Positions 6,935-35,863 of a stretch of DNA of 35,863 nt are shown here, in pieces. Below the pieces are notes generated by a model that ran no database searches, was not told the DNA's origin, and worked only from the letters and a program-made list of their open reading frames with translations. This DNA is from Thermoplasmatota archaeon. Its GTDB lineage: Archaea; Thermoplasmatota; SW-10-69-26; JACQPN01; JAJPHT01. Both the position numbers and the translations under genes were made by a program. The stretch covers positions 1-35,863 of the forward strand of contig JBFILE010000001.1 of NCBI GenBank assembly GCA_041599855.1, written 5' to 3'. How positions within the stretch are numbered: the first letter of the stretch is position 1; each line of letters starts with the position of its first letter.

Positions 6935-7026
6935 ATGCCCGCGGCAGCATCCGCCGACCCACCCCCATTCCTACGGACCCTCGGAGTCGCGAGCCGTCGA
7001 GTCGCCGGGTCCGACCCACGCAATTT

Positions 7027-13899: not shown

Positions 13900-13966
13900 T
13901 CCGTGCGGAGGCGGGCGTACTGCTCGCCGTCAGCGGTAAATTGCCCCCTTGGCTCTTCCCGTGCCT

Positions 13967-15177: not shown

Positions 15178-15681
15178 ATGATCAAACGACGCTCGACAGG
15201 CATCCGCCGGAACGACTCAGGCGTGTCCGAGGTCATCGGTTTCCTCCTGATGTTCGTCATCTCGAGCTTCCTCCTCGTCATCGCCATGTCCACGTTCAAC
15301 AACTCGCAGGACACGAGCGAGGGCGTCGTGACCGCAGTCGAGATGAAGAGTGTCGCCGCGCGCGTCGCAAGCCGCGTCCTCGAAGCGTCCATCGTGGCGC
15401 AGGATTTCCCCAACGCCACCTACGAGATCCAGGTGGACCTGCCGACGCCTCCCAACGACCGCGACTACCGCGTGACACTCACCGCATCCTCGGTGGATGT
15501 GGACACGACGAAAGGCAGCGCCACGGCAACCACGACCACGTACAAGCTGGACGCGATCAACGACCTCGTGCTCTCCGGCGAAGTGTACAGCTACCACAAG
15601 ACCGCCGTCATCCGGTACGCCCCAGTGATCTCGGGCAGCACCCTGACGAAGACCATCACCCTCCTCCCCCTCCAGGACTGA
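15178..15681 (+). CDS. Small archaeal type IV prepilin-like protein (167 aa; candidate major subunit)
   Basis: MIKRRSTGIRRNDSGVSEVIGFLLMFVISSFLLVIAM: short basic n-region plus Pilin_N motif. GGAGGA lies 7 nt upstream of ATG 15178. Confidence 0.75.
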   Translation: MIKRRSTGIRRNDSGVSEVIGFLLMFVISSFLLVIAMSTFNNSQDTSEGVVTAVEMKSVAARVASRVLEASIVAQDFPNATYEIQVDLPTPPNDRDYRVTLTASSVDVDTTKGSATATTTTYKLDAINDLVLSGEVYSYHKTAVIRYAPVISGSTLTKTITLLPLQD

Positions 15682-15685: not shown

Positions 15686-18600
15686 ATGGAACGCTCGATC
15701 AATCTCCGGGAATTCATCCACGCGCTCCGGGACTCGAGCGCCGACGTCCCGCCCGCCCGACTCCTTGCGAACGCGCCCGATGCATGGGCCGCGCTCACGA
15801 CCGACGACCGCGCTGCGATCCTCGCCCATTTCGACATGGCCGACGTGGACGCCGACGCCCTGACCATCGCCATCCGCAAGGTCTCGGATGGACCGTCCAC
15901 GGTGGACAATGTCCGCGTGATCCTGTCATGGCCGGGAGACGACGCCGCGACCGACGGCCACGATTCCGGTGACCAGCGTGCCGACGGTGAAGAGGTTCCG
16001 GCGCAGGAAGGACTCCCGTCAACCGCCCACGGGGAACTGGAAGGTCCGCCTGTGGCGGAAGCCCTCGCCGACGACAGCGGAGAACCCGCCCCGGACCTGT
16101 CGCCCGACATGTCGCCCGGAATGCCGCTGGACGAAGCGCCGGACATGTCGCCCGGAATGCCGCGCGACGACGCGCCGGACATGGCCCCCGCGTCGGACGA
16201 AGGCCACGCCCCAATCGACACCGACCACTTCGCGTTCGACGAAACGACCACCGCCGAGGTCCTGCCGAACGAGGCCTCCGAGGATGGGGCCCAACCGGCC
16301 ACCTTCGAACATTTCGAGGCCCTGGCGGAAGACGCATCCGCCGAGGCCATGATGGCGGAGGGGTTGCCGGAGACCGATGACGCCGTCGAAATGGACGTGT
16401 CTGCGCCTTCCGACAGCGAACCATTCGCGGAATCCGCCCTCGTCCATGCCTCTCCCGATGAGCCGGTTTTCGTGACTGCGGAGGAAGTGCCGGGAACGGA
16501 ACTCGCGGGCCACGGCGTCCTCTCCCCGCCCGGGGCCCATGACCACGCCCCGGGCTACGCCGGTCCCGATTCAAACGCCTCGGCACCCGAGCCCTTCGAC
16601 GATCTCGACGCCATGACGGAAGAGCGGCAGGGCCCGACCGCCCTTGCGATCGTCGATGATGAACCGACCCTGGATGCCGACGCTGGACCCCTCGCCGAGG
16701 AGCCGGAACCGGTCGACCCGGAAACCGGAAGCGCAGCGGCGGAAGCGGGTGCTCCCGCGGACGCCGACACCGACGCCGAAGTCGGGGGCGAACTCCCCCC
16801 CGGCGAGGGCGATCCCTTCGAGGAACCGAAGAAGGGCCTCTTCGGAAAACTCTTCAAGAAAAAAGCTGCGGACGCATCCGATTCCGACGGGCCGATCACG
16901 GTCATCCCGCCCCTTGAGGCCCCCCTCCGCGAGATCGAGGTCTACCCGATCCAGGACCCCTACGCGTTCGTCCGCATCGCCTACGATGACAAGGCGCACG
17001 AGTACGTCTACGAGGTCCTTGAACCGCAGATGGATGAGCGGGAACAGAACATCCTCGAATTCGTCGAGGAGACCCTCGTCGATGTCATCGAGGTCGGCCT
17101 CGCAAAGCTCGGCATGAAGGCCGCCGCCGAGATGCTCACACGGAGCATCGACGAGATCATCTTCGACTACTCCATCGTCCTTTCCCCCAAGTCCAAGGAG
17201 AAGGTCGTGTACTACATCCTGAGGAATTTCCTCGGGTTCGGAAAACTCGACCCCATGATGCGGGACAGTGAGATCGAGGATATCTCGTGCGACGGACCCA
17301 ACATCCCGATCTTCGTGTACCACCGGAAGTACGAGTCGTTCCGCAGCACCATCATGTTCAATGATCATGACGAAGCGGATTCCTTCGTCATCCGGCTCGC
17401 CCAGCGGTCCGGGAAGCACATCTCGATCGCCGAACCCCTGCTCGATGCCACGCTCCCGGACGGGTCGCGTCTGAATGCGACGTTGTCCGACGAGGTTACC
17501 GCGAACGGGTCCACGTTCACCATCCGGAAGTTCAAGCCGGATCCGTTCTCCCCGCCTGACCTTGTCCGCTTCGGCACCATGAATGCCGACATCCTCGCGT
17601 ACTGGTGGCTTGCCGTCCAGAATGGCGCGAGCGCCATCTACGCCGGAGGGACGGCTTCCGGGAAGACGACATCGCTCAATGCGATCCTGCTCTTCATTCC
17701 CGCGCAGATGAAGATCGTATCGATCGAGGATACGCGTGAAGTGAACCTGCCGCACCCGAACTGGATCCCCGGTGTGACGCGATCCGGCTTCGGGCCCCGC
17801 GACTCCCACGGGCGACAAGCCGGTGAGATCGACATGTTCACGCTCCTGAAGGCGGCCCTCCGCCAGCGGCCGGAATACATCCTCGTGGGTGAAGTGCGTG
17901 GCGCCGAGGCGTACGCCCTCTTCCAGGCCATGGCCACGGGCCACACGGCCTACGGGACCATGCACGCGGACTCGGCGGAAAGCGTCATCCACCGGTTGGA
18001 ATCGAGCCCGATCTCCATCCCGCGGAGTCTCCTTGAAGCCCTCGACATCGTCTCCATCCAGATCCAGACCCGCATCGGGGAACGCCGCGTGCGCCGCACC
18101 AAGGAACTCATCGAGATCGTGGGACTCGACCCCCATACCCGGGAGATCCTCACGAACGAGGTGTTCTCGTGGCATCCCGCCACGGATGAATTCGAGTTCA
18201 GCGGCGTCTCGTACGTCCTTGAGCGCATCCAGATGGAGCGGAACATGAGCGCCCACGACATGCGCCTCGAATTCGACGACCGGAAGCTCGTCATCGACTG
18301 GCTCATCAAGAAGGAGATCAACGATTACCTCGAAGTCGCCCACGTGATCCAACGCTACTACAAGGAGAAGGACAAGCTCATGGAGGAGGTCCGCCGCGAC
18401 ATGGAGGACGCACCGGTGGCCGATGAGCCGATGGCGGCGGATGACGCGTCGGACGACGAGCCCTTCGAGTTCGACGCCACTCCCCCGGATCATGAGAACG
18501 TCCTCGAACGCGGCGACCATGACCTCCTCGAAGCCGGCGATCCGGACCGCCTCGAACCCGGGGACCCGGATCTCCTTGAAGCCGGGAACGGCGACCTCCT

Positions 18601-18838
18601 CGAAGCCGGGAACGGCGACCTCCTTGAGAGCGGCGGATTCACGGCCCTGCCGAGCGAGGTCCCGAGCCCCGAGGAATCCCTCCACCGGGGCGACGGGGAT
18701 TCCCCGGATGCCGAAGGCGGCGCGGACGCGGCAGATGCGACCGACGACCGCAGGGACCACGGCCTTGTGGCGCCGTTGAACAGGAAGAAGAACGGGTCGC
18801 CCGACGGCGAGAACGGGGAGGGCGAGCGTGGCGCTTAA
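15686..18838 (+). CDS. ArlI/FlaI/PilB-family type IV filament secretion ATPase, with a ~400-aa N-terminal extension and a ~130-aa acidic repeat-containing C-terminal tail
   Basis: The core starts near residue 400 (ITVIPPLEAPLREIEVYPIQDPYAFVRIAYDD...YEVLEP). IEDISCDGPN...; Walker A AGGTASGKTTSLNA; Walker B KIVSIEDTREV; PEYILVGEVRGAEA; His box GHTAYGTMHA. ATG is 4 nt after the stop of the preceding pilin gene. Confidence 0.85.
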   Translation: MERSINLREFIHALRDSSADVPPARLLANAPDAWAALTTDDRAAILAHFDMADVDADALTIAIRKVSDGPSTVDNVRVILSWPGDDAATDGHDSGDQRADGEEVPAQEGLPSTAHGELEGPPVAEALADDSGEPAPDLSPDMSPGMPLDEAPDMSPGMPRDDAPDMAPASDEGHAPIDTDHFAFDETTTAEVLPNEASEDGAQPATFEHFEALAEDASAEAMMAEGLPETDDAVEMDVSAPSDSEPFAESALVHASPDEPVFVTAEEVPGTELAGHGVLSPPGAHDHAPGYAGPDSNASAPEPFDDLDAMTEERQGPTALAIVDDEPTLDADAGPLAEEPEPVDPETGSAAAEAGAPADADTDAEVGGELPPGEGDPFEEPKKGLFGKLFKKKAADASDSDGPITVIPPLEAPLREIEVYPIQDPYAFVRIAYDDKAHEYVYEVLEPQMDEREQNILEFVEETLVDVIEVGLAKLGMKAAAEMLTRSIDEIIFDYSIVLSPKSKEKVVYYILRNFLGFGKLDPMMRDSEIEDISCDGPNIPIFVYHRKYESFRSTIMFNDHDEADSFVIRLAQRSGKHISIAEPLLDATLPDGSRLNATLSDEVTANGSTFTIRKFKPDPFSPPDLVRFGTMNADILAYWWLAVQNGASAIYAGGTASGKTTSLNAILLFIPAQMKIVSIEDTREVNLPHPNWIPGVTRSGFGPRDSHGRQAGEIDMFTLLKAALRQRPEYILVGEVRGAEAYALFQAMATGHTAYGTMHADSAESVIHRLESSPISIPRSLLEALDIVSIQIQTRIGERRVRRTKELIEIVGLDPHTREILTNEVFSWHPATDEFEFSGVSYVLERIQMERNMSAHDMRLEFDDRKLVIDWLIKKEINDYLEVAHVIQRYYKEKDKLMEEVRRDMEDAPVADEPMAADDASDDEPFEFDATPPDHENVLERGDHDLLEAGDPDRLEPGDPDLLEAGNGDLLEAGNGDLLESGGFTALPSEVPSPEESLHRGDGDSPDAEGGADAADATDDRRDHGLVAPLNRKKNGSPDGENGEGERGA
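16103..16200 (+). repeat. 36-nt in-frame tandem repeat in the ATPase N-terminal extension
   Basis: PDMSPGMPLDEA / PDMSPGMPRDDA / PDMAPASDEG. At the DNA level, ggacatgtcgcccggaatgccgc occurs twice. Confidence 0.8.
18515..18634 (+). repeat. Five 24-nt in-frame tandem repeats in the ATPase C-terminal tail
   Basis: DHDLLEAG / DPDRLEPG / DPDLLEAG / NGDLLEAG / NGDLLESG. gaagccgggaacggcgacctcct is duplicated exactly. Confidence 0.85.
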
Positions 18839-22555: not shown

Positions 22556-22567
22556 GTAAATAGGGAG
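22556..22567 (+). promoter_or_regulatory. TATA-box-like element (GTAAATAGGGAG)
   Basis: A/T-rich box plus GGGAG, 34-45 nt upstream of the TTG 22601 start, inside a 281-nt intergenic gap. Confidence 0.35.
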
Positions 22568-22600: not shown

Positions 22601-25192
22601 TTGTCAACGGGTCGAACACGTGCCAAGGTCCGCCCTCCGCCCCAGCGGACGCCCCGCAGCATCGCCCGTGACGACTCCGGCAACATGATCCTGCTTGCCG
22701 GCATCGTCCTCGCCCTGGCTCTTGTGACCACCTCCATCGGCCTCACCCAGTTGAACGAGGCCGCCGGCGATTCCTCCGACACGAGCAAGACCACCTTCGT
22801 CGAGGAATGGCGCTTCATCCGGGAGCGCACGCGGGACGTGTACGCGAGCGCCATCGGGCTCACGAGCGACGCCTCCTCCGTCCACGAGGTCCTGAACACC
22901 ACGGTCCTCGAACTCGAATTCCTGCAGAACGGCCGAGGCTTCGACATGATCGCCATCCCCGCGAACGGGAGCGCCCCAACGAGTGAGTTGGATCTCGTGA
23001 ACGGGGCCAACCGGTACGATGACCTCGTGACGCTGGACGGGAAACGCCTCTACGGCGCGTACGACGGAACGAACGACGGCTACATCTGGACCGACGGCGG
23101 CGCGGGCTACCTCCAGGCCGTGGTCCTCTACTACTATTTCTCGAACACGCAGATGAACCTCACGGAGATCGCCATCATCTCCGTGAATGCCGAACCCTCG
23201 GGGGCTCCCACCGCGCCCCGGTATCTGGACCTGAACAGCGGCATTCCGTCAGGCGTGAGCGTTGGCGCCGGGAATGCCGCCTACGTGACCCTCGACTGGA
23301 ACGCGCCCGCATCCCCCGGCGGCGGACCCATCCGCAGCTACACGATCTACGCGGACAACACCCTGATCGCCACCGTGGACGGCGACGTCTACACGTACAA
23401 CGACACCGCGAGGATCCAGGGGACACTCGTCGACTACGCGGTCCGCGCAAACAACGCGTACGGAGCGAGTGACTCGGCCAGCGGCAACATCACCCCCGGT
23501 CAACCCCCGTACGCCCCTTCCGGCCTGACCGCAACCCCGGACGACACCGGGATCGACCTGTCATGGTCCGCACCTGCATCCGGAAGTGCCTCCCTGACGG
23601 GCTACTACCTGTACCGCGGAACAAACCCGTCCGCACTCGGCTACCTGTCCTCGACGGGCTCGTCCACGACCACCTACGAGGACAACACCGCAGTCCCCGG
23701 CACTTCGTACTATTACGCCGTCCGCGGACGCAGCGCCGTCGGTAGCGGGTCGAGCGCCACGGTGGGACCCGTGGTCCGCGTGGACGAGCCCGGGGCACCC
23801 AGATTCCTCATCGCAAACGCAGGAAACACGAACGTCACGGTCACCTGGTCCGCGCCCCAGAATGATGGCGGCGCCGCCATCACCGACTACCACGTGGCAC
23901 GAGGACCGTCCGCCGCGTCCCTGACCCGGATCGCGTCGGTCGGCACCGCACTGCAGTACCTCGATACGGGCTTGACCAACACCCAGCAGTACTACTACGC
24001 GATCACCGCCGAGAATACGGCTGGGGAGGGACCGGGAACCACGGCCGTGGCAGCCACCCCCCAGGAGGCTCCGTCCCCCCCGAACAACCCTCTCGCAACG
24101 CCTTCCGGCGGGTCGATCACCCTCACGTGGGACGCGCCGACATTCGTCAACGGGACGATCAGTGCGTATCGCGTATACAACGAAACCGGCGCGAGCCCGG
24201 TCCTGATGACCCAGGTGGCCACAACATCGGCCACCCTGACCGGACTCCACAACGGGTACACGTATTCCCTCTCCGTGTCGGCCGTTTCAACCGGTGGAGA
24301 GGGTGCCTCGACCATTCCCCTCGCCGCCATCCCCTGGCAGCCTGCTGCAGCCCCCACGTCCTTGACGGCGACGCCGGACAACGGCGAGAACGACCTCACA
24401 TGGACCCTGCCAACCGACACCGGCGGATTCCCGATCACGGCGGTGCGGGTATACGGTGGCGCCACGGATCCGCCTACGACCCTCATCGCGAGCATCGCCC
24501 CCGGCACGTCGTACAGCCACACGACCGTGGTGGCCGGGGTCACGTACCACTACCGGGTGGCCGCCGTCACCACGCACGGCGAGGGCACCCGCTCCAGCGT
24601 GGCAAGTGCCACCGCCGCGACTGCTCCCGGTGTGCCGCTGCTGCCGGCGGCCGTCGGGTCCCCGGCCCGCATCGATGTCTCATGGACACCCCCGACCCTT
24701 GACGGATGGTCCCCGATCACGAACTACAAGATCTACCGGGGAACCTCGCCCCTGTCGCTGTCGCTCCTTGCAACCGTCGGGGACACGTCCTCCTACGCCG
24801 ACACGAGCGTGACCAACCTCGTGACCTACTACTACACCATCTCGGCGGTGAACGCACTCGGTGAAAGCGCGCAATCGACAGTCACGAGTGGCATGCCCGT
24901 GGGGGCTCCGTCGGCGCCGCTGAACCTGGCCGCCGTGGGCCTCGCCCTCCGGATCGATCTCACGTGGGATGAGCCGGCGAGCGACGGGGGTAGTGCCATC
25001 ACGTCGTACCGCGTGTATGGCGGAACATCGCCCAACCCGACGGTGCTCATTGCAAGCGTGAGCGCGCCGACGCTGTCGTACTCGGCGACGGTTCCGGCCC
25101 TCGTGACATGGCACTACCGGGTCACGGCCGTGAATGCCGAAGGGGAAAGCACGTACTCGAACGAAGTGTCGGCCATGGCCACGCTCATCTGA
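22601..25192 (+). CDS. Pilin-like N-terminus fused to a ~190-aa domain and seven fibronectin type III domains (863 aa)
   Basis: N-terminus ...RSIARDDSGN-MILLAGIVLALALVTTSIG. Seven ~90-aa repeats each carry W (LDWNAP, LSWSAP, VTWSAP, LTWDAP, LTWTLP, VSWTPP, LTWDEP), Y.(I/V/L)Y and YYY/Y.V...N..GES, which are FN3 hallmarks. TTG 22601 is the only in-frame canonical start that retains the conserved D-x-G-N motif. ATG 22686 is the alternative. The rest of ORF 21401-25192 is an out-of-frame overlap with the platform gene. Confidence 0.7.
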   Translation: MSTGRTRAKVRPPPQRTPRSIARDDSGNMILLAGIVLALALVTTSIGLTQLNEAAGDSSDTSKTTFVEEWRFIRERTRDVYASAIGLTSDASSVHEVLNTTVLELEFLQNGRGFDMIAIPANGSAPTSELDLVNGANRYDDLVTLDGKRLYGAYDGTNDGYIWTDGGAGYLQAVVLYYYFSNTQMNLTEIAIISVNAEPSGAPTAPRYLDLNSGIPSGVSVGAGNAAYVTLDWNAPASPGGGPIRSYTIYADNTLIATVDGDVYTYNDTARIQGTLVDYAVRANNAYGASDSASGNITPGQPPYAPSGLTATPDDTGIDLSWSAPASGSASLTGYYLYRGTNPSALGYLSSTGSSTTTYEDNTAVPGTSYYYAVRGRSAVGSGSSATVGPVVRVDEPGAPRFLIANAGNTNVTVTWSAPQNDGGAAITDYHVARGPSAASLTRIASVGTALQYLDTGLTNTQQYYYAITAENTAGEGPGTTAVAATPQEAPSPPNNPLATPSGGSITLTWDAPTFVNGTISAYRVYNETGASPVLMTQVATTSATLTGLHNGYTYSLSVSAVSTGGEGASTIPLAAIPWQPAAAPTSLTATPDNGENDLTWTLPTDTGGFPITAVRVYGGATDPPTTLIASIAPGTSYSHTTVVAGVTYHYRVAAVTTHGEGTRSSVASATAATAPGVPLLPAAVGSPARIDVSWTPPTLDGWSPITNYKIYRGTSPLSLSLLATVGDTSSYADTSVTNLVTYYYTISAVNALGESAQSTVTSGMPVGAPSAPLNLAAVGLALRIDLTWDEPASDGGSAITSYRVYGGTSPNPTVLIASVSAPTLSYSATVPALVTWHYRVTAVNAEGESTYSNEVSAMATLI
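23198..25189 (+). repeat. Array of seven divergent FN3-encoding repeats (~270-290 nt each)
   Basis: Periodicity is at the protein level, as described for the CDS. The DNA copies are diverged and I saw no long exact repeats. Confidence 0.7.
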
Positions 25193-25830
25193 CGAATCGG
25201 ATCGGATTCGCGCGGGGGCGCGGGGGCGCGCGCCGCGGAACCCGGAACGGCCAAAGAGAACGGGGGAAATCAACCATCCGAATCAACAGCAATGAACCGG
25301 AACCACTCGATGATGCAGGCCACTTCCTGCTCCTGGCGGGGATCATCCTCGTCCTCGCGTTCACCGCGAGCGCCTACACCTACAGCCTTGTCACGGACCT
25401 GAATGCGTCCACGGCGCGGGACCAGGATGCCGGCCTCGTACCGGATTACCGGTTCATCCATGAGCACATGCGTGCCACCGTCCACTCGGGCACAAACAGC
25501 GATCTTTCCAACACGAGTGCCCTGGCACTCTTCGAATCCTCGGAAGCCACCATCCGCACCCTGGCCATCTCGCGCGGTCTCGAAGTGAGCCTCACCCTCG
25601 CCGGGAACAGTTCGGGCGCGGTCCGGGATGAGTATGACATCGGAGCCGGCGGCTGGGACTTCATCACCGATTATTTGGGAGCAACCCTGAGCGGCGATTA
25701 TGACGGCGGCAACGACGGCCTGCTGTGGCTGGGAGACTCCACGGGCCGCGTCCAGGCACTGGCGTATGAAATCCAGGTCCGGGACGACCGGATGACCGTG
25801 CAGGAAACCGTGATCCTCGCGGTGGATTAG
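25108..25830 (+). CDS. Small pilin-like protein (second N-terminal class); start codon unresolved
   Basis: ...NEPEPLDDAGH-FLLLAGIILVLAFTASAY aligns with the N-termini of the 22601, 26082 and 31025 proteins. The only canonical in-frame start upstream of this motif is ATG 25108. That start overlaps the previous gene by 85 nt and gives a ~70-aa basic leader. Confidence 0.55.
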   Translation: MALPGHGRECRRGKHVLERSVGHGHAHLTNRIGFARGRGGARRGTRNGQRERGKSTIRINSNEPEPLDDAGHFLLLAGIILVLAFTASAYTYSLVTDLNASTARDQDAGLVPDYRFIHEHMRATVHSGTNSDLSNTSALALFESSEATIRTLAISRGLEVSLTLAGNSSGAVRDEYDIGAGGWDFITDYLGATLSGDYDGGNDGLLWLGDSTGRVQALAYEIQVRDDRMTVQETVILAVD

Positions 25831-25947: not shown

Positions 25948-25971
25948 TGCGACCCCTGGGTCGGGGGTCGC
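25948..25971 (+). other. Perfect 9-bp stem hairpin (TGCGACCCC-tgggtc-GGGGTCGCA)
   Basis: Lies in the 251-nt gap between the 25108 and 26082 genes, 23 nt upstream of the TATA-like element at 25994. Could be a terminator, a processing site or an operator. Confidence 0.3.
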
Positions 25972-25993
25972 AGAACCCCCCTCATCCCATGCG

Positions 25994-26007
25994 TTAAATA
26001 AGGGAAG
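25994..26007 (+). promoter_or_regulatory. TATA-box-like element (TTAAATAAGGGAAG)
   Basis: Best TATA match in the window. If it is real, the GTG at 26007 cannot be the start, and ATG 26082 is the first start downstream of the expected TSS. Confidence 0.4.
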
Positions 26008-26081
26008 TGGGAGAGACGCAAGTCGGCGGACGTGCTGCAAGGCCTCTTCAATCGAGCTTCCAGCCCCCGCCGCGTGATACC

Positions 26082-29000
26082 ATGGGCGACGCAGGGAACA
26101 TCCACGTACTTGAAGCGATCCTCATCGGGATTGTCATGGTTGGTGCCATCAGCTTCGTCATCACGTTCGACGCGCCCACCACGACCACCGAACCGGAGCG
26201 TCGCGCCCTCGAGGAATCCGGGACGGACGCATTGAACATCATCTACGAGACCCCGCTCACCGATGTCCGATACGGCAACAACACATTGTCCAAGTTCATC
26301 GCCCTCGCCCTCCAGGGGAATACCGGACCCTTGAGCACGCGATTGGAGGAACTCCTCCCACCGGCGACCGCCTACAACGTCTACATCAACAACGGCTACG
26401 GGTCGCTGCCCGTGTACGTGAGCCATGAACCGTCCGGTGAGACCGTCACGTCCTCGAAACTCCTCGAACCGAAATGGACGTACGTGTTCACGGAACGCTC
26501 GCACTTCGTCACGTCGACCCCCACCAGTCTTGGGGTGTATGCGTTGCCCGTGTACAACTCGAACCCCGTCGATGATGGCGGTGTGCCCCTCGCCGTCCAC
26601 TTCTCGGGAATCATCCGCGACAGCGGCAGGACCTTCAACCTCACCTCGTACTATTCCACGATCCAGGGTGGCCCCGGGTCGATCACCACCAACGTCGGGC
26701 TGCATCTCCTGAACTCCGAAGGCGAAGCCATCACCCTCGTCGACCGGTCCTCGACGGACAACACGACCTACTACGTGGGCTACGAGGACGTGGCATCGTA
26801 CGGCCTCCCGACGGGAACGAAACTCATCATCCAGATCCCCCGGGGCTTCGACGTCACCGTGACCGCTGCCGAGAACGAGGACTGGACGATCCTCGAGACC
26901 GTGACCGGCAACTCCACGGGCGGCCGCATCGTCGCGGAACTCGCATCCACACTGAACCCCACGAAAGGCCATTTCGTGTTCCACATGGACAACGTCGTCG
27001 ACCTCTACGATTTCCACCAACTCGACATGCGCCTCGCCGGCACCGTCCAAGGCCGTGCGGAGGCCGTGATCCAGGTCCGGGATTCACCCGTCCCGACAGG
27101 CGGCGACTTCCATGGCGTGTACGCGTCCATCCCGAAACCCATGGGGAACGGCGAAGCCAACCAGTGGCTCGTCGGGTTCCTGAATCCGCGGAGCCTGATC
27201 ACGACGGCGAACGCGACACTCCTTGCCGGACTCGACCCGGATGACCCCGAAATCCAGGCGTCATCCCGGTCGATCACCCTCACCCACGTCCAGATCCGAC
27301 AGCCGGAAGGGAAATCCCTTTTCTCCGGCGTGAGCGTCCTGAATGGCGAGCCCGGGTGGTCCGTCACGTCCGCGTCGCGCCTCGACTGGACGGGGGAGCT
27401 GAACCTGACCTCGAATTCCATGGAGGAATGGACGCTGCAGGTCACCGGCACCGGAACCGGCACCCGCCGGGAGATCCGGAACTACGTGAACGTGGACGCC
27501 AACGTCGGATCCCACACGGAGACCCTCACCCGCCGCATCCTGCCTGCCGTATTCTACGACAATGTGCTCCCCGAAGGCGCGGTGCTGCCGTTCACCGGGT
27601 ACGAAACGACCGTCGGCAACGGGTACGCCCTCACCACGAACGCCATCCACCGCGGCGTCAACATCCCGGGATCCTGGCACTACAACATCACGCCGGTCGC
27701 GATCGAGCGCGACAACCTCAACCTCGTGAACATCACGCTCGAGGATACCCTCGTCCCCATCGGTTCGAGCGCCTACGTGAATGTGGACAACCACAACCTG
27801 CTCCTCACCCTCGCGGACCTCGGCATCCCCGCGACGACCACGTTCCGCGTGTATGCACCCTACGGTCTCGACAACCACACGGCTATCGAGACCTCATCCA
27901 TCACCGAGGGCGATGTCATGTCGTCCGGCGTTGCGAAGCTCCTCGTCCGGGATGTGAACGCCGACGGCGTCCAGGACGTCATCGTCGCCACCACAACCAA
28001 CAAGATCTTCGTCCTCGACGGCCGGACCGGCAGCAAGATGAGCGGGTACCAGTTGGCGCTCGATTCCTATCTGGAGGCCCAGGGATTGCCCACCGCGAAC
28101 ATGGGTGACCTGTCGATCATGACCGCGGCCCAGATCGACGGTGACACCGTGTATCTCCTGGGCATGGCGCAAGGGAAGCCGAACGTCTTCGCCATCAATG
28201 CGGACTTCACCGTCCGTTGGGCCCAGAGCACGTCCGCATCCTACGCAACCTACGAAGTGCGCGGATACACGGGGATCCCCGCCACCTTCGACGGGTTCGA
28301 CATCACGGCCATCGATGCCTCCGCGGACGTGAGCGGCGACGGGATCGCAGACGTGCTCGCGGCCGACTCGAACGGCATCGTCTTCGCATTCAACGGAACC
28401 ACGGGCGACCTCGTCCCGTCCTGGATCTACGACACCTCGGCCGAACGGGCTCTCGTCCGGGGCGGCGTCATCGGACAGGCGGCGACCGACGGTTGGTTCG
28501 TCACCACGGGCTCGGGCAGCAGTGTCGGACTGTCGCAACCGATCAACCTGACCGCGGGCACATACACGACGGACCCGGGCGCAGCGCTCACCGCGGAACT
28601 CCAGAAACCGTACGTGGACAACCGGAACCCCGGTCTTGTGGCCATCGGCCCGAACCGCGAAACACTCTGGTTCGTGAACGGTGGAAGTTTCGATGTGATC
28701 GACGCCGCCGACATCGACAATGACGGAGTCACGGATTTCGTGGGCGGTGCAGCGGACGGGTTCGTCTATGCCTACAACGGTACCCAATCCTCATTCCCGC
28801 TCTACGGCGAAATGTTCGCCACGGGAACCGAGATCGTGGACGTGGCTTGGCTGGATGCGGACACGGGATGGTCCGTGAGCAATGACGGGTACTTCATGTT
28901 CACGACAGACGGGTGGACGACACGGACGTACTACATGGACGAAGTGGCCGCGTACTATGCGTTCCCGGGTGCGAACACCTTGAGCTTCGCTGACGCGAAC

Positions 29001-31025
29001 ACGGGGTACGTGGCGGGCGATGCGGGGACCATGTGGAAGACGGAGACCGGAGGCACCACCTTCGGCGCCACCGCCTACCTGATCAAGGTCTGGATCCCCG
29101 GGGTCGGATACACGGCGACCCTTCCGGGGACCGGCGAAGTGGGACGGGATTTCGAGGACATGCACGCCTTCGACCCGTACACCGTGCTCACGGTGGGGAC
29201 CGTCTGCCCGAACTGCAACGGCCGGGCAACCGTCATCGGAACCTATGATGGCGGAACCAACTGGAAGGACGCGGAATGGTCCGGAGACCCCATCTCGAAG
29301 ACGCTCCACCGGATCATCGTGGTGGACCCGTTGAATGTGATCGTGGTGGGTCAGGACGGAGCCGTCGGGCACGGGTTCCGTGAATCCGACCAGACATGGA
29401 CGTTCACGAAATTGACCAGCGTGGCCGGCGGGGAAACCCTGTACGGCGGCTGGTTCCGTGACGTGACCACGGGCTGGGTCGTGGGCGAAAGCGGCGCCCT
29501 CTACAAGACCACCGACAGCGGCGCATCATGGTCGAAGATCACGGTTCCCACGAACCGGACGCTCCAGGACATCGATTTCCTTGATCCCGCAAAGGGACGC
29601 AACGGGGAATGGGGCGTCCTCGTCGGGGACGACAGCGTGTACATGGAGACCTACGACGGCGGCGCCACGTGGAACCTCCTGCCCCCGTACGCCCTCACGG
29701 ACTACAACCGCGTCAACGTGCTCGAGAACGACGTGGCGAACATCGCGGGCGGGAACACGACCACCCGCGCCTTTGCGCAGACCCACGCATACATGCCCGA
29801 ATCCGTGTTCCAGACCCACAACCTGAACACCCTCGCCGACGGATTCTACACGGACATCACCATCGTCACGGACCACCGGTACGCGGGCGCATCCACGACC
29901 ATCACGATGGAAGCCAGCGTCGACGGCACGAACTGGTTCCCCCTCGACCCGGAGCTCGCAGACGGCATCTACACCGGCACGTTCGGGAACGATTCGTTCT
30001 CGTCCCAGTATGTCGGCTCGGACCTCCACGTGCGGTTCACGCTCGGCGTCGACATCTCCCTGAACCAGAAGTCGTTCCGCGTGAATTCGTTCGCAATCGC
30101 CGCCGATTACGCCATCGGACAATCCACCGGCCAATGGACGGACACGTTCCTCGTGAACGCGGCCAACGCCGGCAAGGTGGACACGGCTGCCACGACTGCG
30201 GACTACAACGCCACGTACGGCCACATCAAGTCGGCCCTGCAGAACCGGATGTGGACGCTCCACGTGGACGGTGCCGTGAACGACCTCGCCATCGTGGCGG
30301 ACATGGACGGGGATGGCGGCATGGACGTGATCATCGGCATCGGTGAAACCCTGTCCGCGGCAAACCTCAGCGCCCTCGGCATCCCCGCAGGCCTCGTCGC
30401 GGATCAACAGAACCGGGTCATGGCATTCAACGGAACGAGTGGCCGTGGCCTGTGGGTGTCGCCGGAATTGCCGGGACCCGTCGTGTTCGTCCGATCCGCC
30501 CACCACGCCCACGCATACGACAGCGTGCCGGACGTGGCCGCCATCGTGCGCATGGAACCCGCGGGCGCCGGCAATTACGATCTCCTGTACTATCTGGACG
30601 GCCTGGACGGAAGCATTCTCGGCGACCCGGTGAACCTCACGATGCCCGTCACCGGGATCGAGGTCGGCGAACTGAAGGCATCGTCCCTCGGGAATGAACT
30701 GGCGATCGGCACATCGCCGCCGAGCACGGTCACACGTCCCGGCTACGCGTACACCTATCACGTCCCGACGGAGCCCGAACTCCTGTGGCGGACGAATCCC
30801 AGTTTCAAGGGCGTGTACTCGTTCACCTACGAGGTCGCCCGGAACAGCCTGTTCGGCGTGTACCCGGTCGAAATTGAAGTGTCGTGGACCACGGGGGCGG
30901 GGGTCGCCCTTGCCCAGCGTTCCCTCACGTACTTCGTGGTGACTCCGCCCAACGGCGCCATGCCCACGAGCCCCATCTACAACATCGAACTCGTCACGTG
31001 GTTCCGGGAGTGGGATCTCGAGTGA
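26082..31025 (+). CDS. Giant (1647 aa) pilin-like surface protein with FG-GAP/VCBS-like and BNR(Asp-box)/Ycf48-like beta-propeller regions
   Basis: N-terminus MGDAGN-IHVLEAILIGIVMVGAISFVITF. FG-GAP-like Ca-binding repeats: DVNADGVQDVIVA...FVLDGRTG (27951), DVSGDGIADVLAA...FAFNGTTG (28326), DIDNDGVTDFVGG...YAYNGT (28712), DMDGDGGMDVIIG...MAFNGTSG (30299). Asp-box / Ycf48-like repeats: TYDGGTNWKD (29241), TTDSGASWSKI (29508), TYDGGATWNLL (29649), plus GW.V(G/S)..G motifs. Many N-x-S/T sequons. Confidence 0.75.
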   Translation: MGDAGNIHVLEAILIGIVMVGAISFVITFDAPTTTTEPERRALEESGTDALNIIYETPLTDVRYGNNTLSKFIALALQGNTGPLSTRLEELLPPATAYNVYINNGYGSLPVYVSHEPSGETVTSSKLLEPKWTYVFTERSHFVTSTPTSLGVYALPVYNSNPVDDGGVPLAVHFSGIIRDSGRTFNLTSYYSTIQGGPGSITTNVGLHLLNSEGEAITLVDRSSTDNTTYYVGYEDVASYGLPTGTKLIIQIPRGFDVTVTAAENEDWTILETVTGNSTGGRIVAELASTLNPTKGHFVFHMDNVVDLYDFHQLDMRLAGTVQGRAEAVIQVRDSPVPTGGDFHGVYASIPKPMGNGEANQWLVGFLNPRSLITTANATLLAGLDPDDPEIQASSRSITLTHVQIRQPEGKSLFSGVSVLNGEPGWSVTSASRLDWTGELNLTSNSMEEWTLQVTGTGTGTRREIRNYVNVDANVGSHTETLTRRILPAVFYDNVLPEGAVLPFTGYETTVGNGYALTTNAIHRGVNIPGSWHYNITPVAIERDNLNLVNITLEDTLVPIGSSAYVNVDNHNLLLTLADLGIPATTTFRVYAPYGLDNHTAIETSSITEGDVMSSGVAKLLVRDVNADGVQDVIVATTTNKIFVLDGRTGSKMSGYQLALDSYLEAQGLPTANMGDLSIMTAAQIDGDTVYLLGMAQGKPNVFAINADFTVRWAQSTSASYATYEVRGYTGIPATFDGFDITAIDASADVSGDGIADVLAADSNGIVFAFNGTTGDLVPSWIYDTSAERALVRGGVIGQAATDGWFVTTGSGSSVGLSQPINLTAGTYTTDPGAALTAELQKPYVDNRNPGLVAIGPNRETLWFVNGGSFDVIDAADIDNDGVTDFVGGAADGFVYAYNGTQSSFPLYGEMFATGTEIVDVAWLDADTGWSVSNDGYFMFTTDGWTTRTYYMDEVAAYYAFPGANTLSFADANTGYVAGDAGTMWKTETGGTTFGATAYLIKVWIPGVGYTATLPGTGEVGRDFEDMHAFDPYTVLTVGTVCPNCNGRATVIGTYDGGTNWKDAEWSGDPISKTLHRIIVVDPLNVIVVGQDGAVGHGFRESDQTWTFTKLTSVAGGETLYGGWFRDVTTGWVVGESGALYKTTDSGASWSKITVPTNRTLQDIDFLDPAKGRNGEWGVLVGDDSVYMETYDGGATWNLLPPYALTDYNRVNVLENDVANIAGGNTTTRAFAQTHAYMPESVFQTHNLNTLADGFYTDITIVTDHRYAGASTTITMEASVDGTNWFPLDPELADGIYTGTFGNDSFSSQYVGSDLHVRFTLGVDISLNQKSFRVNSFAIAADYAIGQSTGQWTDTFLVNAANAGKVDTAATTADYNATYGHIKSALQNRMWTLHVDGAVNDLAIVADMDGDGGMDVIIGIGETLSAANLSALGIPAGLVADQQNRVMAFNGTSGRGLWVSPELPGPVVFVRSAHHAHAYDSVPDVAAIVRMEPAGAGNYDLLYYLDGLDGSILGDPVNLTMPVTGIEVGELKASSLGNELAIGTSPPSTVTRPGYAYTYHVPTEPELLWRTNPSFKGVYSFTYEVARNSLFGVYPVEIEVSWTTGAGVALAQRSLTYFVVTPPNGAMPTSPIYNIELVTWFREWDLE

Positions 31026-32218
31026 TGCGTCGCCGTTCCCTCCTTGGGCGCGATGAGGGAAACCTCTACGCCTTGGAAGCACTCGTGGTGATCACGATCC
31101 TTGCCGCCAACCTTGCATTCGTCATGAGCCTCGACCACCCCAGCAACAACATGGAAGGCACGCGGGTCGACCTCAACCTCGCGGCACGGGACAGCCTCGT
31201 CCTCCTTGAGCGCGCCGTCGGGGACGATCCGGTGTTCGCGAACGACGCGGCCCGCCAGTATGTGACGCAGGCGTTGTACGGGGATCCCGTGAACCTGTCC
31301 CGGAAACTCACCAGCCTCCTGCCGGCGGGCGCTCGCCACAGCGTGTACCTGGACAATGGTCTCGCGACCCGGGAGCTGATCAAGGGTCCCGGCCCCGCGA
31401 AGGAACGGGTGACTGCCCAGGCCGGGTTCAGTTCGAACTGGGCGACGACGCTCATCGTTCCCGACTTCGAGGTGCACTCCGCCACTGCCGGCCGCGTGAC
31501 GTTCACGACCCTTCCCGTGTTCCACGGCCGTGTCCTGTCAACCGCGTCGGTGCCGGTCGAAATCGCGGATGGTTCGGATCAGAACCTGACCACGAGCCTC
31601 GGGAACGGATTCGTGGAAGGCGTTGTGACACCTCTGCCTTCGGCCGGGTCGCCCCAGGCCAACGTGACCTTGGCGTACAAGGATGAATTGCTCGCCGGCC
31701 GCGCGAAGTGGACCCTTGGTGCGGCCGGTGCCGAGGACTCACTCCTCGTTGCCACCCAGTACCTGTCACGCAGCGGATTGAATGCGAGCGCGGTCACCCT
31801 CGACACGGCGGTGACGAGGCCCGGCGACACGGTCACGGTGGCGTATGATTTCACGGCGCTTGAAACCGCATTGGGCACCAATGTCGTCCCGGGCTCGTTC
31901 GCCGTGAACGTGAGCCTCGTTGCGCCAACCCCGCCACCCACCAATGCCACACCATCGTATTACGCGACCGCGTGGACCGCCTCGGCCACCACCACTTCAG
32001 GCACGTTGGATCTCGACATCCCGTTCGACACGTTGTTCGGCGTCCACCTCGTCGATGTGCGGTTGTCGTACACGTTGACGAACGGCGGCGCCACCGAGAT
32101 CGAGCAGGCTGCGCACCTCGTGGAACGTCTCGACGTGGCGTTCAAGGACGGCACGGAGGCGCCCCTGAATCCGGGGTACCGCATCGTGCTTGAGGTCTGG
32201 TTCGACGACTGGCTGTGA
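31025..32218 (+). CDS. Pilin-like protein (397 aa), translationally coupled to the giant protein
   Basis: MRRRSLLGRDEGN-LYALEALVVITILAANLAFVM. The ATG overlaps the upstream TGA (gTGATGc). The mature part is beta-rich with no domain I recognise. Confidence 0.65.
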   Translation: MRRRSLLGRDEGNLYALEALVVITILAANLAFVMSLDHPSNNMEGTRVDLNLAARDSLVLLERAVGDDPVFANDAARQYVTQALYGDPVNLSRKLTSLLPAGARHSVYLDNGLATRELIKGPGPAKERVTAQAGFSSNWATTLIVPDFEVHSATAGRVTFTTLPVFHGRVLSTASVPVEIADGSDQNLTTSLGNGFVEGVVTPLPSAGSPQANVTLAYKDELLAGRAKWTLGAAGAEDSLLVATQYLSRSGLNASAVTLDTAVTRPGDTVTVAYDFTALETALGTNVVPGSFAVNVSLVAPTPPPTNATPSYYATAWTASATTTSGTLDLDIPFDTLFGVHLVDVRLSYTLTNGGATEIEQAAHLVERLDVAFKDGTEAPLNPGYRIVLEVWFDDWL

Positions 32219-33381: not shown

Positions 33382-35556
33382 TCATGGGGGCCCGCGGCGG
33401 TGGCGACGGAGCAGGCCCGCGACGGCAAGTGCGGCCACGCCCCAACCGACCGGGATCGGATTGCCGGCGGGCGCGTGGGCGACGCCGTTGCCGGCGGCGG
33501 GTCCGGGGTCGGTGCCGCCGGATGCCACGGTGACCCATTGGTCCACGGCTGCTGCGGCGCCGTCCTCGTCCACGATGCCGAGGCGGACCGCGTAGGACCC
33601 GGGTGCGGCGTACGTGTGGCTGACCGCTGCCCCTTCGCCCACGGCGCCGTCGCCGAATTCCCAGGCGTAGCGCAGGCCGCGGCCGGTGGATGCGGTTCCG
33701 TTGAAGTTGACGGAGGAACCTTCGACACTGGCGGTGAACAGGGCGGACGGAGGAAGTCGTGCCGCGCCCTTGGCGTCGTCGTCATCGTCGCCGGGCGCGT
33801 TGTCGCGGCCTCCCGGCGCGTCACCGGTCGTGTTGGACCTGCCTCCCGTGCCGTGGTCCCGGGTTCCCATGTCGTCCTCGGACCGGGGGGCGGTCACGGT
33901 GATGGGGGCCTTGGCGAGGGAAATCGCTCCGTCGTCGTCGCGGACGAGGAGTCTCACATCGTACGTCCCGGCGGTGCCGTACGTGTGGGACGCGGTGACG
34001 CCGGTTGCGGGGTCCGATCCGTCTCCCCACTTCCACACGTGGTCGACGATGCGCCCATCCCCGTCGGTGGAAGGGGAGGCGTCGACGTGCACGCGGAGTC
34101 CGTCGACCTCGTGGATGAAGGCTGCGACGGGCGCCAGGTTTGCTGCCTTGAGGGTCACGGTTTCCTCGGCGACCGCAACGTCGCCGTCGTCGTCGGTGAC
34201 GCGCAGGGTCACCACGTAGGTGCCCGCCGCGTGGTAGGTGTGGGTCGCAACGTTGCCGACGTTCGCGGGTGAGCCATCCCCCCAGTCCCATGTGTAGGTC
34301 GTGATGATGCCGTCCGGGTCGCTGCTCGTGGAGGCGTTGGTGCTCACGGTGAGGTTCCGTGCACCCAGGGTGAAGCGTGCCACCGGCGGCTGGTTGGAGT
34401 CGGGAGGCGGCGGAGTGGTCCCGTTGGGCGCGACGGGCACCGTGTGTTCGACGCTTCCGGTGGCACCGGATCCGTCGGTCACGGTCAGGGTCACGACGTG
34501 GTTGTTGGGGGAGGTGAACACATGGGTCGGATGTTGGATTCCACTTGTTCCGCCATCATGGAAGTCCCATGCCCATGAGAGGATGCCGTCGTCGGGGTCG
34601 GTGGAGGTGTCGGTGAAGGTGACGTTTTCGCCGGCCATCGGGGCGGTGGGGCTGAAGGTGAAGGACGGGGCGGGTGGCCGGTTGGCCACGTTGATCACTT
34701 TCGAAGCGGTTGCGGTGGCGCCGGTGTTGTCGGTGACTGTCTGCGTGATGGTGGCGGCGCCGGGCGTGGGGAACCGGTGGGTGAAGGTGGTGCCGGTCCA
34801 TGATCCGCTTCCGCCGTCGGACCATTGGGATGTGGCGATGGTTCCGTCGGCGTCGGTTGCGGTGCTCGTGAAGGTGATGTCGGATCCTGTGGTGGGCGAT
34901 GCCGGAGTGTAGGTGAAATCGGCGGTGGGGGGCAGGTTCTGGACGGTGACGCTGCGGGTGGTGGTTCCGGTGGCGGCGGCGTTGTCGGTGACGGTGAGGG
35001 TGATGGTGTAGGTGGCGGCGGATGCGTAGGTGTGGGTTGCGTGGCGGCCGGACCCGGCGGGGGTTCCGTCGCCCCAGTTCCAGGTGTACGCCGTGATGGT
35101 GCCGTCGGGGTCGGTGGATCCGGTTGCGTCGACGGTGATGCGGAGGCCTTGGGCGGATACGACGAATGCGGCGGATGGGGCGGTGTTGGCGCCGGCTTGG
35201 ATGGTGACGGTGCCGCGCATGTTGGCGTGGTAGAGGCAGGTGTAGGGGTAGGAGCCGGGGTCGAGGGCGGTGGTGTCGAGGGTGTAGGCGGTGCCTTGGT
35301 TCATGTTGCCGGAGTTGAAGGCTCCGGAGTCGGCGGTGACGGTGTGGGGGGCGGCGTCCTGGTTCGTCCACCGGATGAGGTCGCCGCGGGTCAAGGTGAC
35401 GGGGTTGGGGGTGTAGGTGAATCCGACGATGGTGACGTCGGTGGTGGCGGCTTCGGCGGGGCTGGCGGCGGCCCAGGCCATGAGAATGAGGGCGGCAGAC
35501 ACCCCGATGGCACGGGCGCCAAGGGGGCCGCTTCGCGAGGCATCCATGGGAGACAT
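33382..35556 (-). CDS. Secreted type-1 (blue) copper protein (cupredoxin) fused to six PKD domains, with a PGF-CTERM-like sorting signal
   Basis: Signal peptide MSPMDASRSGPLGARAIGVSAALILMAWAAASPAEA. Cupredoxin ligand pattern ...APHTVTAD...GSYPYTCLYHANMRGTVTI (His, Cys, His, Met). Six repeats with WxWGDG....H.Y...G.Y.V.L.V.D (PKD). C-terminus PIPVGWGVAALAVAGLLRRHRRG (hydrophobic helix plus basic tail). Start at ATG 35556; 35547 is possible. The ORF-track extension to 35829 is Pro/Arg-rich and unlikely to be coding. Confidence 0.8.
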   Translation of the reverse strand: MSPMDASRSGPLGARAIGVSAALILMAWAAASPAEAATTDVTIVGFTYTPNPVTLTRGDLIRWTNQDAAPHTVTADSGAFNSGNMNQGTAYTLDTTALDPGSYPYTCLYHANMRGTVTIQAGANTAPSAAFVVSAQGLRITVDATGSTDPDGTITAYTWNWGDGTPAGSGRHATHTYASAATYTITLTVTDNAAATGTTTRSVTVQNLPPTADFTYTPASPTTGSDITFTSTATDADGTIATSQWSDGGSGSWTGTTFTHRFPTPGAATITQTVTDNTGATATASKVINVANRPPAPSFTFSPTAPMAGENVTFTDTSTDPDDGILSWAWDFHDGGTSGIQHPTHVFTSPNNHVVTLTVTDGSGATGSVEHTVPVAPNGTTPPPPDSNQPPVARFTLGARNLTVSTNASTSSDPDGIITTYTWDWGDGSPANVGNVATHTYHAAGTYVVTLRVTDDDGDVAVAEETVTLKAANLAPVAAFIHEVDGLRVHVDASPSTDGDGRIVDHVWKWGDGSDPATGVTASHTYGTAGTYDVRLLVRDDDGAISLAKAPITVTAPRSEDDMGTRDHGTGGRSNTTGDAPGGRDNAPGDDDDDAKGAARLPPSALFTASVEGSSVNFNGTASTGRGLRYAWEFGDGAVGEGAAVSHTYAAPGSYAVRLGIVDEDGAAAAVDQWVTVASGGTDPGPAAGNGVAHAPAGNPIPVGWGVAALAVAGLLRRHRRGPP

Positions 35557-35730
35557 GATCGATTCCGGGGGTTTCAGGGTTTGCACGAAACCACTTTCCT
35601 GCGGCTCATGGCGGTGAGGATGGGCGTCCGGACGGGGGGCAGCGAGGCGCGGGGGCCCGAAGGGGCGCAAGAGTGGGGGCGTTTCGGTCGTGATTGCACG
35701 GGATAGACAGGGAGCCCGCATCACCGCGGG

Positions 35731-35770
35731 CGTCGTCCGGCGTCGTCCGTCGTCGTCCGTCGTCGTGGGG
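35731..35770. repeat. 10-bp tandem repeat cgtcgtccg(g/t) x3 plus a partial copy
   Basis: cgtcgtccgg cgtcgtccgt cgtcgtccgt cgtcgtgggg, 175-215 nt upstream of the cupredoxin-PKD gene start. Confidence 0.8.
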
Positions 35771-35863
35771 TGGGCGGACGGGCGTCGTGGTCGTCGTGGG
35801 GCGGGCGGGCACTGGTCCACGGTTGTCACCGTCGGTCAGTCCATCAACACGGAGGGCGCGGAG

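Follow-up and report, generated by a model that had tools for sequence, protein, structure and literature searches.

A 1647-residue pilin-like protein with a Ycf48-like propeller, likely nested among FG-GAP blades, in a type IV pilus locus of an uncultured Thermoplasmatota archaeon

Modular type IV pilins have been described in bacteria, where PilB and PilC of Streptococcus sanguinis combine a pilin module with a von Willebrand factor A (vWA) domain and with a lectin, respectively (Raynaud et al., 2021, PMC8179133). GspK, the minor pseudopilin at the tip of type II secretion systems, has a domain inserted within its pilin module and caps the filament together with smaller minor pilins (PMC8179133). 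In archaea, large adhesin-like proteins are often encoded in type IV filament loci, as has been noted in general terms (PMC4858521; bioRxiv 10.64898/2026.04.22.720090). Large DUF2341 'PilY-like' proteins have been predicted (Makarova et al., 2016, PMC4858521), and it has been proposed that proteins with class III signal peptides 'functionalise' archaeal type IV filaments (bioRxiv 10.64898/2026.04.22.720090). The subject of this paper is a gene for a protein of 1647 amino acids (aa), hereafter the giant, on contig JBFILE010000001.1 of a Thermoplasmatota archaeon (GCA_041599855.1). The whole stretch of 35,863 nucleotides (nt) that was analysed, positions 1 to 35,863 of this contig, is referred to as the window. 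To our knowledge, none of the large adhesin-like genes of archaeal type IV filament loci has been dissected, and we know of no ligand of the pili of uncultured Thermoplasmatota.

The general idea of a pilus-displayed adhesin is established; the family to which the giant belongs is, judging from the literature searched, undescribed. An earlier reading of this DNA, made from the sequence only, did not recognise the architecture among archaeal pili. The architecture is indeed absent from the two sources on archaeal filaments (PMC4858521; bioRxiv 10.64898/2026.04.22.720090), although large adhesins had already been noted there. Neither the size of the giant, nor a propeller-in-propeller head, nor the bracketing by an N- and a C-terminal module was met in the literature searched, and the latter makes no mention of DUF7262 and its sister families.

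The favored reading, to which a probability of about 55% is assigned, is that the giant is a modular pilin-like minor subunit, i.e., an adhesin displayed at the tip of a euryarchaeal-type type IV pilus. Processing after Gly5 would be the task of a prepilin peptidase encoded elsewhere, and the hydrophobic helix would dock the giant into the filament core. The protein would be incorporated first, together with the small, the fibronectin type III (fn3)-bearing and the 397-aa pilin-like paralogs encoded nearby, and would thus come to lie at the tip; we infer this position since a protein of ~170 kDa cannot fit in the filament body. A beta-sandwich stalk would hold out the head, a calcium-dependent FG-GAP propeller that would accommodate, between its blades 5 and 6, a BNR propeller and a module called X. 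The ligand bound by this head, a glycan or a protein, would belong to a surface or to another cell. The N-domain and C-module would form a constant 'carrier', and the middle an exchangeable 'effector'. Past its N-terminal segment, the protein is made up of beta structure of an extracytoplasmic type. The gene and the parts of its product are the following.

26082..31025, + strand: giant gene, 1647 aa plus stop; full-length colinear homologs are known
25994..26001, + strand: TATA-like box TTAAATAA, 81 nt upstream of the giant's ATG
26082..26606, + strand: N-terminal pilin-like domain, aa 1-175; leader MGDAG, NIHVLEA plus ~20 hydrophobic residues, helix-plus-strand globular part
26607..27896, + strand: beta-rich stalk, aa 176-605, ~430 aa in three family-specific modules (176-360, 361-540, 541-605)
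27897..28811, + strand: first FG-GAP block, aa 606-910, ~5 blades, calcium loops at aa 624, 749 and 877
28812..29786, + strand: Ycf48-like BNR (Asp-box) beta-propeller, aa 911-1235, including C1042-x-x-C1045
29787..30251, + strand: module X, beta-rich, aa 1236-1390, conserved among giant-class proteins
30252..30791, + strand: second FG-GAP block, aa 1391-1570, ~3 blades, calcium loop at aa 1407
30792..31022, + strand: C-terminal module, aa 1571-1647, ending ...YFVVTPP...SPIYNIELVTWFREWDLE

Compared with the bacterial modular pilins, the giant has a pilin-type N-terminal carrier with a Glu soon after the putative cleavage site, bulky modules, a predicted tip position and a place among minor pilins. 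Unlike in those proteins, the IPR012902 motif is not found in the giant, and the carrier is an archaeal DUF7262-type domain. The length of the giant is about double that of the largest protein (860 aa) in the bacterial survey (PMC8179133), and its effector is bracketed by the C-module instead of being simply appended. Like GspK, it would have a large domain inserted in a pilin module, to judge solely from the co-occurrence of the N- and C-modules; the insert of GspK is a single alpha-domain, whereas that of the giant would be ~1400 aa of beta structure. With PilY1/PilC, the tip adhesins of bacterial type IVa pili, the giant shares a beta-propeller, calcium binding (as predicted from its loops), association with pili and a place next to minor pilins. 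However, PilY1 is no pilin and has a propeller family of its own, whereas the anchor of the giant is pilin-like. Neither the PilY1/Neisseria_PilC nor the DUF2341 family of Pfam matches the target or its 28 full-length relatives.

A word-indexed search found only four full-length relatives, and a word-indexed search with the N-domain profile returned nothing, probably because hydrophobic words swamped the candidates. An exhaustive hidden Markov model (HMM) search with residues 1-610, i.e., the pilin-like domain plus stalk, was more informative. It gave, with E <= 1e-3, 252 representatives of clusters formed at 50% identity, and 77 of these had E <= 1e-30. When HMMs of the nine modules of the giant were run on the best 150 of the 252, the N-domain, FG-GAP_N, BNR and C-terminal modules occurred together in ~25. 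All nine modules were present, in the same order, in 18 of these best 150, so the domain order that the sequence-only reading had proposed to look for in related genomes does recur there. The labeled members are all proteins of Thermoplasmatota metagenome-assembled genomes (MAGs), annotated as 'hypothetical protein' or 'YCF48-related protein'.

The giant open reading frame (ORF) is a real coding sequence and no assembly chimera, since many independent contigs bear full-length relatives with which it is colinear. Long spurious ORFs are common in GC-rich DNA, and an artefact, either a spurious ORF or the fusion of several genes by misassembly or frameshift, was considered; a chimera of genes joined by assembly error is among the findings that, according to the sequence-only reading, would refute it. 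The third-position GC content (GC3) is nevertheless 0.81-0.91 in each 600-nt slice of the gene. Many independent samples and three NCBI MAGs contain homologs, 25-33% identical, that are colinear over the full length, and the order of the modules is the same in these homologs. We regard an artefact as already refuted and the 1647-aa gene at 26082-31025 as borne out. Inside the gene, no tandem DNA repeat was found when looked for.

The N-terminus of the giant consists of MGDAG followed by NIHVLEAILIGIVMVGAISFVITF and has a short leader, a small residue (Gly) at the putative position -1 and a hydrophobic segment of ~20 residues. Among 81 relatives the consensus is R-x-D-x-[G/A], then [S/N]-x-[H/Q]-V-L-E-A and ~20 hydrophobic residues, with the G/A present in 77, the Glu in 80 and basic residues usual upstream. 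D-x-G precedes the hydrophobic run in all six pilin-like genes of the locus, which argues for one common processing site: DDG/VSPVIG in the canonical Pilin_N gene, DSG/VSEVIG, DSG/NMILLAG, DAG/HFLLLAG, DAG/NIHVLEA in the giant and DEG/NLYALEA. AlphaFold2 was run, with an alignment of 5 sequences, on aa 1-610 and on aa 596-1647, yielding a mean predicted local distance difference test score (pLDDT) of 50.5 and 49.4, respectively. In the former, unreliable model, helices at 6-19, 37-56 and 68-91 followed by strands at 98-178 are compatible with a pilin fold.

At the family level, DUF7262 is matched by 15 of the 28 relatives (best 7e-10), and P0002 (38.6 bits), P0030 (33.1), P0004 (29.9) and P0013 (28.0) are above the cut-off of 27 bits. 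The isolated N-domain of the target gives weak matches, over the N-terminal ~125 aa, to DUF7262 (PF23923, 21.9 bits) and DUF7288 (PF23959, 22.5 bits), with the same cut-off. Because some homologs are above the cut-off and the target is below it, the family is, by these scores, a divergent relative of DUF7262 of which the giant is a sub-threshold member.

The second line of evidence is the gene context. The giant is a conserved member of a type IV pilus locus of roughly 11 genes, which is complete in the window and includes the following.

13180-13899, + strand: KaiC/FlaH-like ATPase
14072-15163, + strand: DUF7289/Pilin_N protein, candidate major pilin, with a weak Pilin_N match
15178-15681, + strand: DUF7266 pilin-like gene
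15686..18838, + strand: FlaI/PilB-type secretion ATPase (T2SSE 9e-33; NCBIfam FlaI 410 bits, cut-off 550)
18828-19703 and 19707-22319, + strand: split platform protein, T2SSF/FlaJ-like, in two genes
22673..25192, + strand: pilin-like gene with six fn3 domains, 839 aa (fn3 7.5e-47 over 6 stretches, weak DUF7261)
25306..25830, + strand: small pilin-like gene, 174 aa, N-terminus DDAG then HFLLLAG
31025..32218, + strand: paralogous pilin-like gene, 397 aa, with an N-domain and C-module in common with the giant

The giant is thus encoded together with a type IV filament ATPase and a platform protein, and the same holds in L001, L013 and L014, three NCBI Thermoplasmatota MAGs. In L013 and L014 the whole order is repeated, i.e., KaiC, DUF7289, DUF7266, ATPase (PilB3_N plus T2SSE), two T2SSF genes, the small gene, the giant, the paralog and proteins of 590-670 aa. 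The part from DUF7266 to the giant is found again in L001, and the order is partly present on Logan contigs as well. The small pilin-like gene lies directly upstream of the giant in L001, L003, L005, L007, L013 and L014. The first ~172 aa of the fn3-bearing protein are paralogous to the adjoining 174-aa gene, and since L013, L014 and L001 have the small gene only, the fn3 gene seems to represent a duplication particular to the window, with added fn3 domains. BLASTP of the giant against the 397-aa paralog gives 8e-15 for the N-domain, and the C-module of the paralog matches that of the giant's relatives at about 1e-5 to 1e-6. In its make-up, the locus is similar to those of the euryarchaeal 'clade 2 / system 2' pili, which have pilin sets of their own and are stated to encode large adhesin-like proteins in many cases (PMC4858521; bioRxiv 10.64898/2026.04.22.720090).

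The window and L001 share 77% identity in the ATPase but only 32% in the giant. The giant is therefore considered to evolve fast and to be, presumably, an exposed part of a machine that is otherwise conserved, as would be expected for a component that binds a ligand. Taken together, the N-terminal motif and the gene context are the two lines on which the pilin-like status of the giant is well supported.

The same N-terminal features would also fit a cell-surface adhesin or substrate-capturing receptor that is anchored by its N-terminus, either by a signal-anchor or by a class III signal like the Sulfolobus bindosome, and that is never part of a filament, the pilus machinery being used at most for its insertion. 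Archaeal binding proteins with class III signals have been proposed to act in this way (bioRxiv 10.64898/2026.04.22.720090). Two relatives are in line with it, as P0012 lies away from pilus genes, on a short contig, and P0094 lacks pilus machinery within 10 kb. Among the proteins that Foldseek matched to the stalk model are cell-wall adhesins and an S-layer protein, with low template-modelling (TM) scores. On the other hand, the slot of the giant among pilin-like genes, right after the platform genes, is strictly conserved in four loci. The invariant Glu near the putative cleavage site is a second argument, as a mere anchor would not need it; Glu5 of bacterial type IV pilins is used in subunit-subunit contacts (PMC8179133). 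An anchored surface protein therefore seems possible rather than probable.

Several findings weigh against a pilus subunit with an adhesin head. The leader of the giant is without Lys/Arg, and its position -2 is Ala, where class III signal peptides typically have Lys/Arg. The DUF7262 and DUF7288 scores of the target are themselves under the gathering cut-off of 27 bits; neither Pfam Pilin_N (PF07790), at E <= 1, nor any bacterial prepilin motif family matches the target, and the N-domain profile matched no solved structure in the PDB. When this profile was compared by hhalign with the DUF7289, DUF7266, small-pilin and 594-aa families of the locus, only the leader and hydrophobic segment aligned (E 0.001-0.05, probability <=21%), with nothing significant past them. 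The window holds no prepilin peptidase gene. P0012, a relative devoid of propellers, has no pilus genes nearby on its short contig. Both AlphaFold2 models are poor (pLDDT 49-50) and do not establish the pilin fold, the nested propeller or the packing of the N-domain against the C-module. Finally, no ligand can be named. The pilin-like N-terminus proposed in the sequence-only reading finds support in the motif and the locus context, while matches to Pilin_N or to a solved pilin are lacking; the models of segments that it had suggested give support neither to a pilin fold nor to a nested propeller.

The best-defined part of the predicted head is the BNR propeller at aa 911-1235. Pfam PSII_BNR (PF14870) matches the target with 51.7 bits (cut-off 27, E 1e-13) and is matched by 26 of the 28 full-length homologs (best 9.5e-21). 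Strict Asp-boxes are present at aa 1054, 1143 and 1190 (nt 29241-29670), with a variant at aa 941; three strict boxes compare with 0.37 expected in 5000 shuffles, a fraction of 0.007 of which reaches this number. The Asp-box or Ycf48-like region that the sequence-only reading had placed at 28.85-29.7 kb is confirmed. In a sequence search of the PDB with the target, Ycf48/HCF136 proteins were the sole significant matches (4e-8), and the profile of the 28 relatives matched Ycf48 (8e-31), a xyloglucanase of family GH74 (3e-10) and a BNR glycosyl hydrolase (5.5e-7). Because the AlphaFold2 models are poor, Foldseek results were counted for the Ycf48 match only. With the whole aa 596-1647 model, poor overall, Ycf48 chains gave target-normalised TM-scores of 0.60-0.64 over ~305 columns, and the sole model segment with a pLDDT >70 (aa ~1025-1165) falls in the BNR region.

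Ycf48/HCF136, a photosystem II assembly factor (PDB 2xbg, 5ojp, 5oj3), is the best match for aa 911-1235 in both sequence and fold. It is a seven-bladed BNR/Asp-box propeller; the BNR region of the giant has Asp-boxes in common with it and would adopt the same fold. Unlike Ycf48, which is a stand-alone lipoprotein of ~330 aa, the BNR region is a domain of a 1647-aa archaeal surface protein that is unrelated to photosynthesis and has a conserved C-x-x-C. The target scores 50.8 bits against the NCBIfam equivalog PRK13684, far below its cut-off of 326, and is not a functional Ycf48. The only two cysteines of the protein are those of this C-x-x-C (aa 1042-1045, nt 29205-29216); they are kept in 27 and 28 of the 28 relatives, respectively, and could form a disulfide or a metal site.

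GH74 enzymes and sialidases contain BNR propellers, and lambda-carrageenase and some lyases contain propellers of the FG-GAP type, which raises the question whether the head of the giant cuts a glycan instead of binding it, i.e., whether the protein is a tethered polysaccharide-degrading enzyme. The family profile does match the GH74 xyloglucanase and the BNR glycosyl hydrolase, at the values given above, and there are weak Beta-prop_CGLA matches. The non-enzymatic Ycf48 is, however, matched far better (8e-31; Foldseek TM-score 0.62), the cleft of GH74 needs two BNR propellers where the giant has one, and neither the target nor the 28 relatives match a glycoside hydrolase or lyase family significantly. 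An enzyme is thus considered improbable.

For the FG-GAP blades, the evidence lies in the family more than in the target. Calcium loops of the form D-x-[DNS]-x-[DN]-G-x-x-D are present at aa 624 (nt 27951), 749 (nt 28326), 877 (nt 28710) and 1407 (nt 30300), against an expectation of 0.018 in 5000 protein shuffles, and the Asp residues of all four are kept in 19-28 of the 28 relatives. In the target, Pfam FG-GAP_3 (15.3 bits, cut-off 26.9) and FG-GAP (11.7 bits, cut-off 22.1) are both sub-threshold. Among the 28 relatives, 17 match FG-GAP_3 (best 1.2e-8) and 14 match FG-GAP (best 1.3e-8), with P0055 at 29.3 bits in this FG-GAP/FG-GAP_3 comparison. The calcium-binding blades of integrin alpha-4 are matched marginally by the profile of the 28 relatives (E 0.002, profile positions 619-749). 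The FG-GAP assignment is accordingly supported by the family-level matches and the conserved calcium loops, and is unproven from the target alone. The sequence-only reading had counted at least three FG-GAP repeats at 27.95-28.8 kb; the loops are exactly there, although the target itself stays below the Pfam cut-offs.

The further FG-GAP repeat that it had placed at ~30.3 kb has its loop at nt 30300, yet it is no isolated repeat but part of a block of ~3 blades, for which hhalign indicates homology with the first block (probability 98%, E 1e-13). A blade HMM detects strong blades at 615, 740, 867 and 1397 (1397-1460) and weak ones at 676 and 1480 (1480-1516). With ~5 blades ahead of the BNR-plus-X segment and ~3 behind it, the two sets cannot both form a closed ring of their own. 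The giant therefore likely has a single FG-GAP propeller, two blades of which are separated by the inserted Ycf48-like propeller and module X. Of the two propellers previously proposed, both the BNR and the FG-GAP type hold, but the arrangement looks like an interrupted FG-GAP propeller and not like a tandem.

In some integrins, an I-domain is inserted between propeller blades. Like the FG-GAP propellers of integrin alpha chains, the giant has DxDxDGxxD calcium loops on successive blades, besides the marginal alpha-4 match, and a large domain is apparently inserted between its blades, as in those integrins. Unlike in integrin alpha, its Pfam FG-GAP scores are below the cut-off, and the inserted unit would be a whole second propeller plus a beta-rich module.

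Neither the stalk (aa 176-605) nor aa 1236-1390 has a Pfam or PDB relative in searches with the target and the family profile. The first ~600 aa, called unassigned in the sequence-only reading, indeed show no Pfam or PDB match save the weak DUF7262/DUF7288 ones. The stalk modules are also present in propeller-less relatives of 670-730 aa. The low-confidence stalk model consists mostly of strands, for which Foldseek gives weak matches to tandem Ig-like adhesin and leg domains; the integrin-leg/MSCRAMM matches, as well as those to DDB1/CPSF160, have TM-scores <0.25 and are not used as evidence. The giant contains 19 N-x-S/T sequons, compared to 14.7 +/- 3.5 in shuffles, so that these are not enriched, contrary to what had been stated earlier.

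The C-module, the last ~75 residues, has the family consensus ...YFxVTPP...SPxYxVxLVxWxxDW and is common to the giant's relatives and the downstream paralog. It lies at the extreme C-terminus in 101 of 133 N-domain proteins, at any length from 362 to 2849 aa. Because the N- and C-modules co-occur over this whole range, the family looks like a constant carrier with exchangeable inserts. Several size classes can be recognised: ~360-450 aa, with the N-domain, a short middle and the C-module, to which the downstream paralog belongs; ~670-730 aa, i.e., the giant minus its propellers; ~1060-1120 aa, with a PQQ-type propeller in one case; ~1630-1810 aa, the giant form; and ~1900-2010 aa. P0012 (L008 1086-3269) is a 727-aa form without the propellers of the giant, on a 5.5-kb contig on which no pilus genes were seen nearby. 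P0094 (L012 10001-13234) is the 1077-aa form with a PQQ-type propeller, and has no pilus machinery genes within 10 kb.

Tentatively, the N-domain and the 75-aa C-module can be seen as two halves of one carrier fold, into which soil Thermoplasmatota would insert interchangeable heads and thereby diversify their pilus tips. The heads may range from none over Ig-like stalks and a PQQ-type propeller to an FG-GAP propeller hosting a Ycf48-like propeller. The idea that the C-module completes the DUF7288/DUF7262 fold was tried on 'mini' proteins in which the N- and C-modules were joined, and found no support, as the Pfam alignments were not extended and the scores not raised, a result that does not exclude packing of N against C.

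With regard to the start of the gene, the longest ORF on the + strand runs from a GTG at 26007 to 31025, and the ATG at 26082 gives the 1647-aa product. The GTG was rejected as start since it lies only 6 nt past the TATA-like box and since the leaders of relatives are equally short (e.g., MDDAG and MRDSG, compared to MGDAG from the ATG). In the 35.9-kb window there are just 11 stretches of 6 or more bases that consist of A and T only, and TTAAATAA (25994-26001) is one of them; two further pilin-like genes are preceded by comparable boxes at a distance of 111-130 nt. The TATA-like element attributed to the gene in the sequence-only reading was found again, as a putative promoter. The overlap with the next pilin-like gene, at 31025, which had been read as translational coupling, was likewise recovered, the giant's stop TGA (31023-31025) having its A in common with the ATG of that gene. 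A hairpin, GCGACCCC...GGGGTCGC at about 25948-25972, was considered as a terminator and dropped, its stability being that of shuffled sequence (z -0.22).

The window has a GC content of 65%, and its few A/T-only runs (13135-13142, 13937-13942, 22557-22562, 25994-26001) are concentrated between genes, where they precede the KaiC-like gene and three pilin-like genes by 35-130 nt. This clustering suggests several promoters inside the pilus locus, with fairly long leaders. The secretion ATPase (15686-18838) has an acidic N-terminal extension of ~400 aa and an acidic C-terminal tail, both with tandem repeats: APDMSPGMP at 16094-16190 in the extension, and DPDLLEAG/NGDLLEAG at 18501-18624 in the tail, with periods of 36 and 24/48 nt.

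After the giant and the paralog, related loci (L014 16297-22348, L003 8048-12074, L002 7384-11933) have 1-3 copies of a gene whose product, of 590-830 aa and with no Pfam match, bears D-[DE]-[GA] and a hydrophobic run at its N-terminus. In the window the sole copy of this gene (10354-12138, + strand) is upstream of the pilus locus, past a TauE gene. Two genes downstream of the pilus locus and convergent with it, the gene at 33382-35829 (- strand) encodes a secreted-type protein with a cupredoxin-like domain followed by six PKD domains. At the other end, 92-7091 (- strand), the ScpB, ScpA and SMC genes lie upstream of the locus. In a 2026 preprint, an SMC homolog was found beside one class of archaeal filament loci, subsystem 4F (bioRxiv 10.64898/2026.04.22.720090); a link between SMC and the pilus locus is doubtful here, as ~6 kb of unrelated genes intervene. 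Between the SMC and DUF599 genes, a 30-nt unit is repeated 3.4 times (6676-6778, 91% matches). It is probably non-coding, and an over-long SMC ORF reads it as ...NRSSAFVGR... repeats.

The family offers an alignable case, with at least 25 representatives of the giant form among 252 relatives, a constant carrier with a variable head, calcium loops and a CxxC that can be mutated, and a defined gene neighborhood. Its practical value is limited for now, as there is no cultured host. If the carrier-with-insert design is true, the 'modular pilin' principle extends from bacteria to archaea, and the giant would illustrate in what way a thin filament can carry binding heads of very large size. In the more specific case that the N- and C-modules are halves of a split carrier, the family would hold the largest pilin-type subunits known, together with a propeller-within-propeller head that has no described counterpart.

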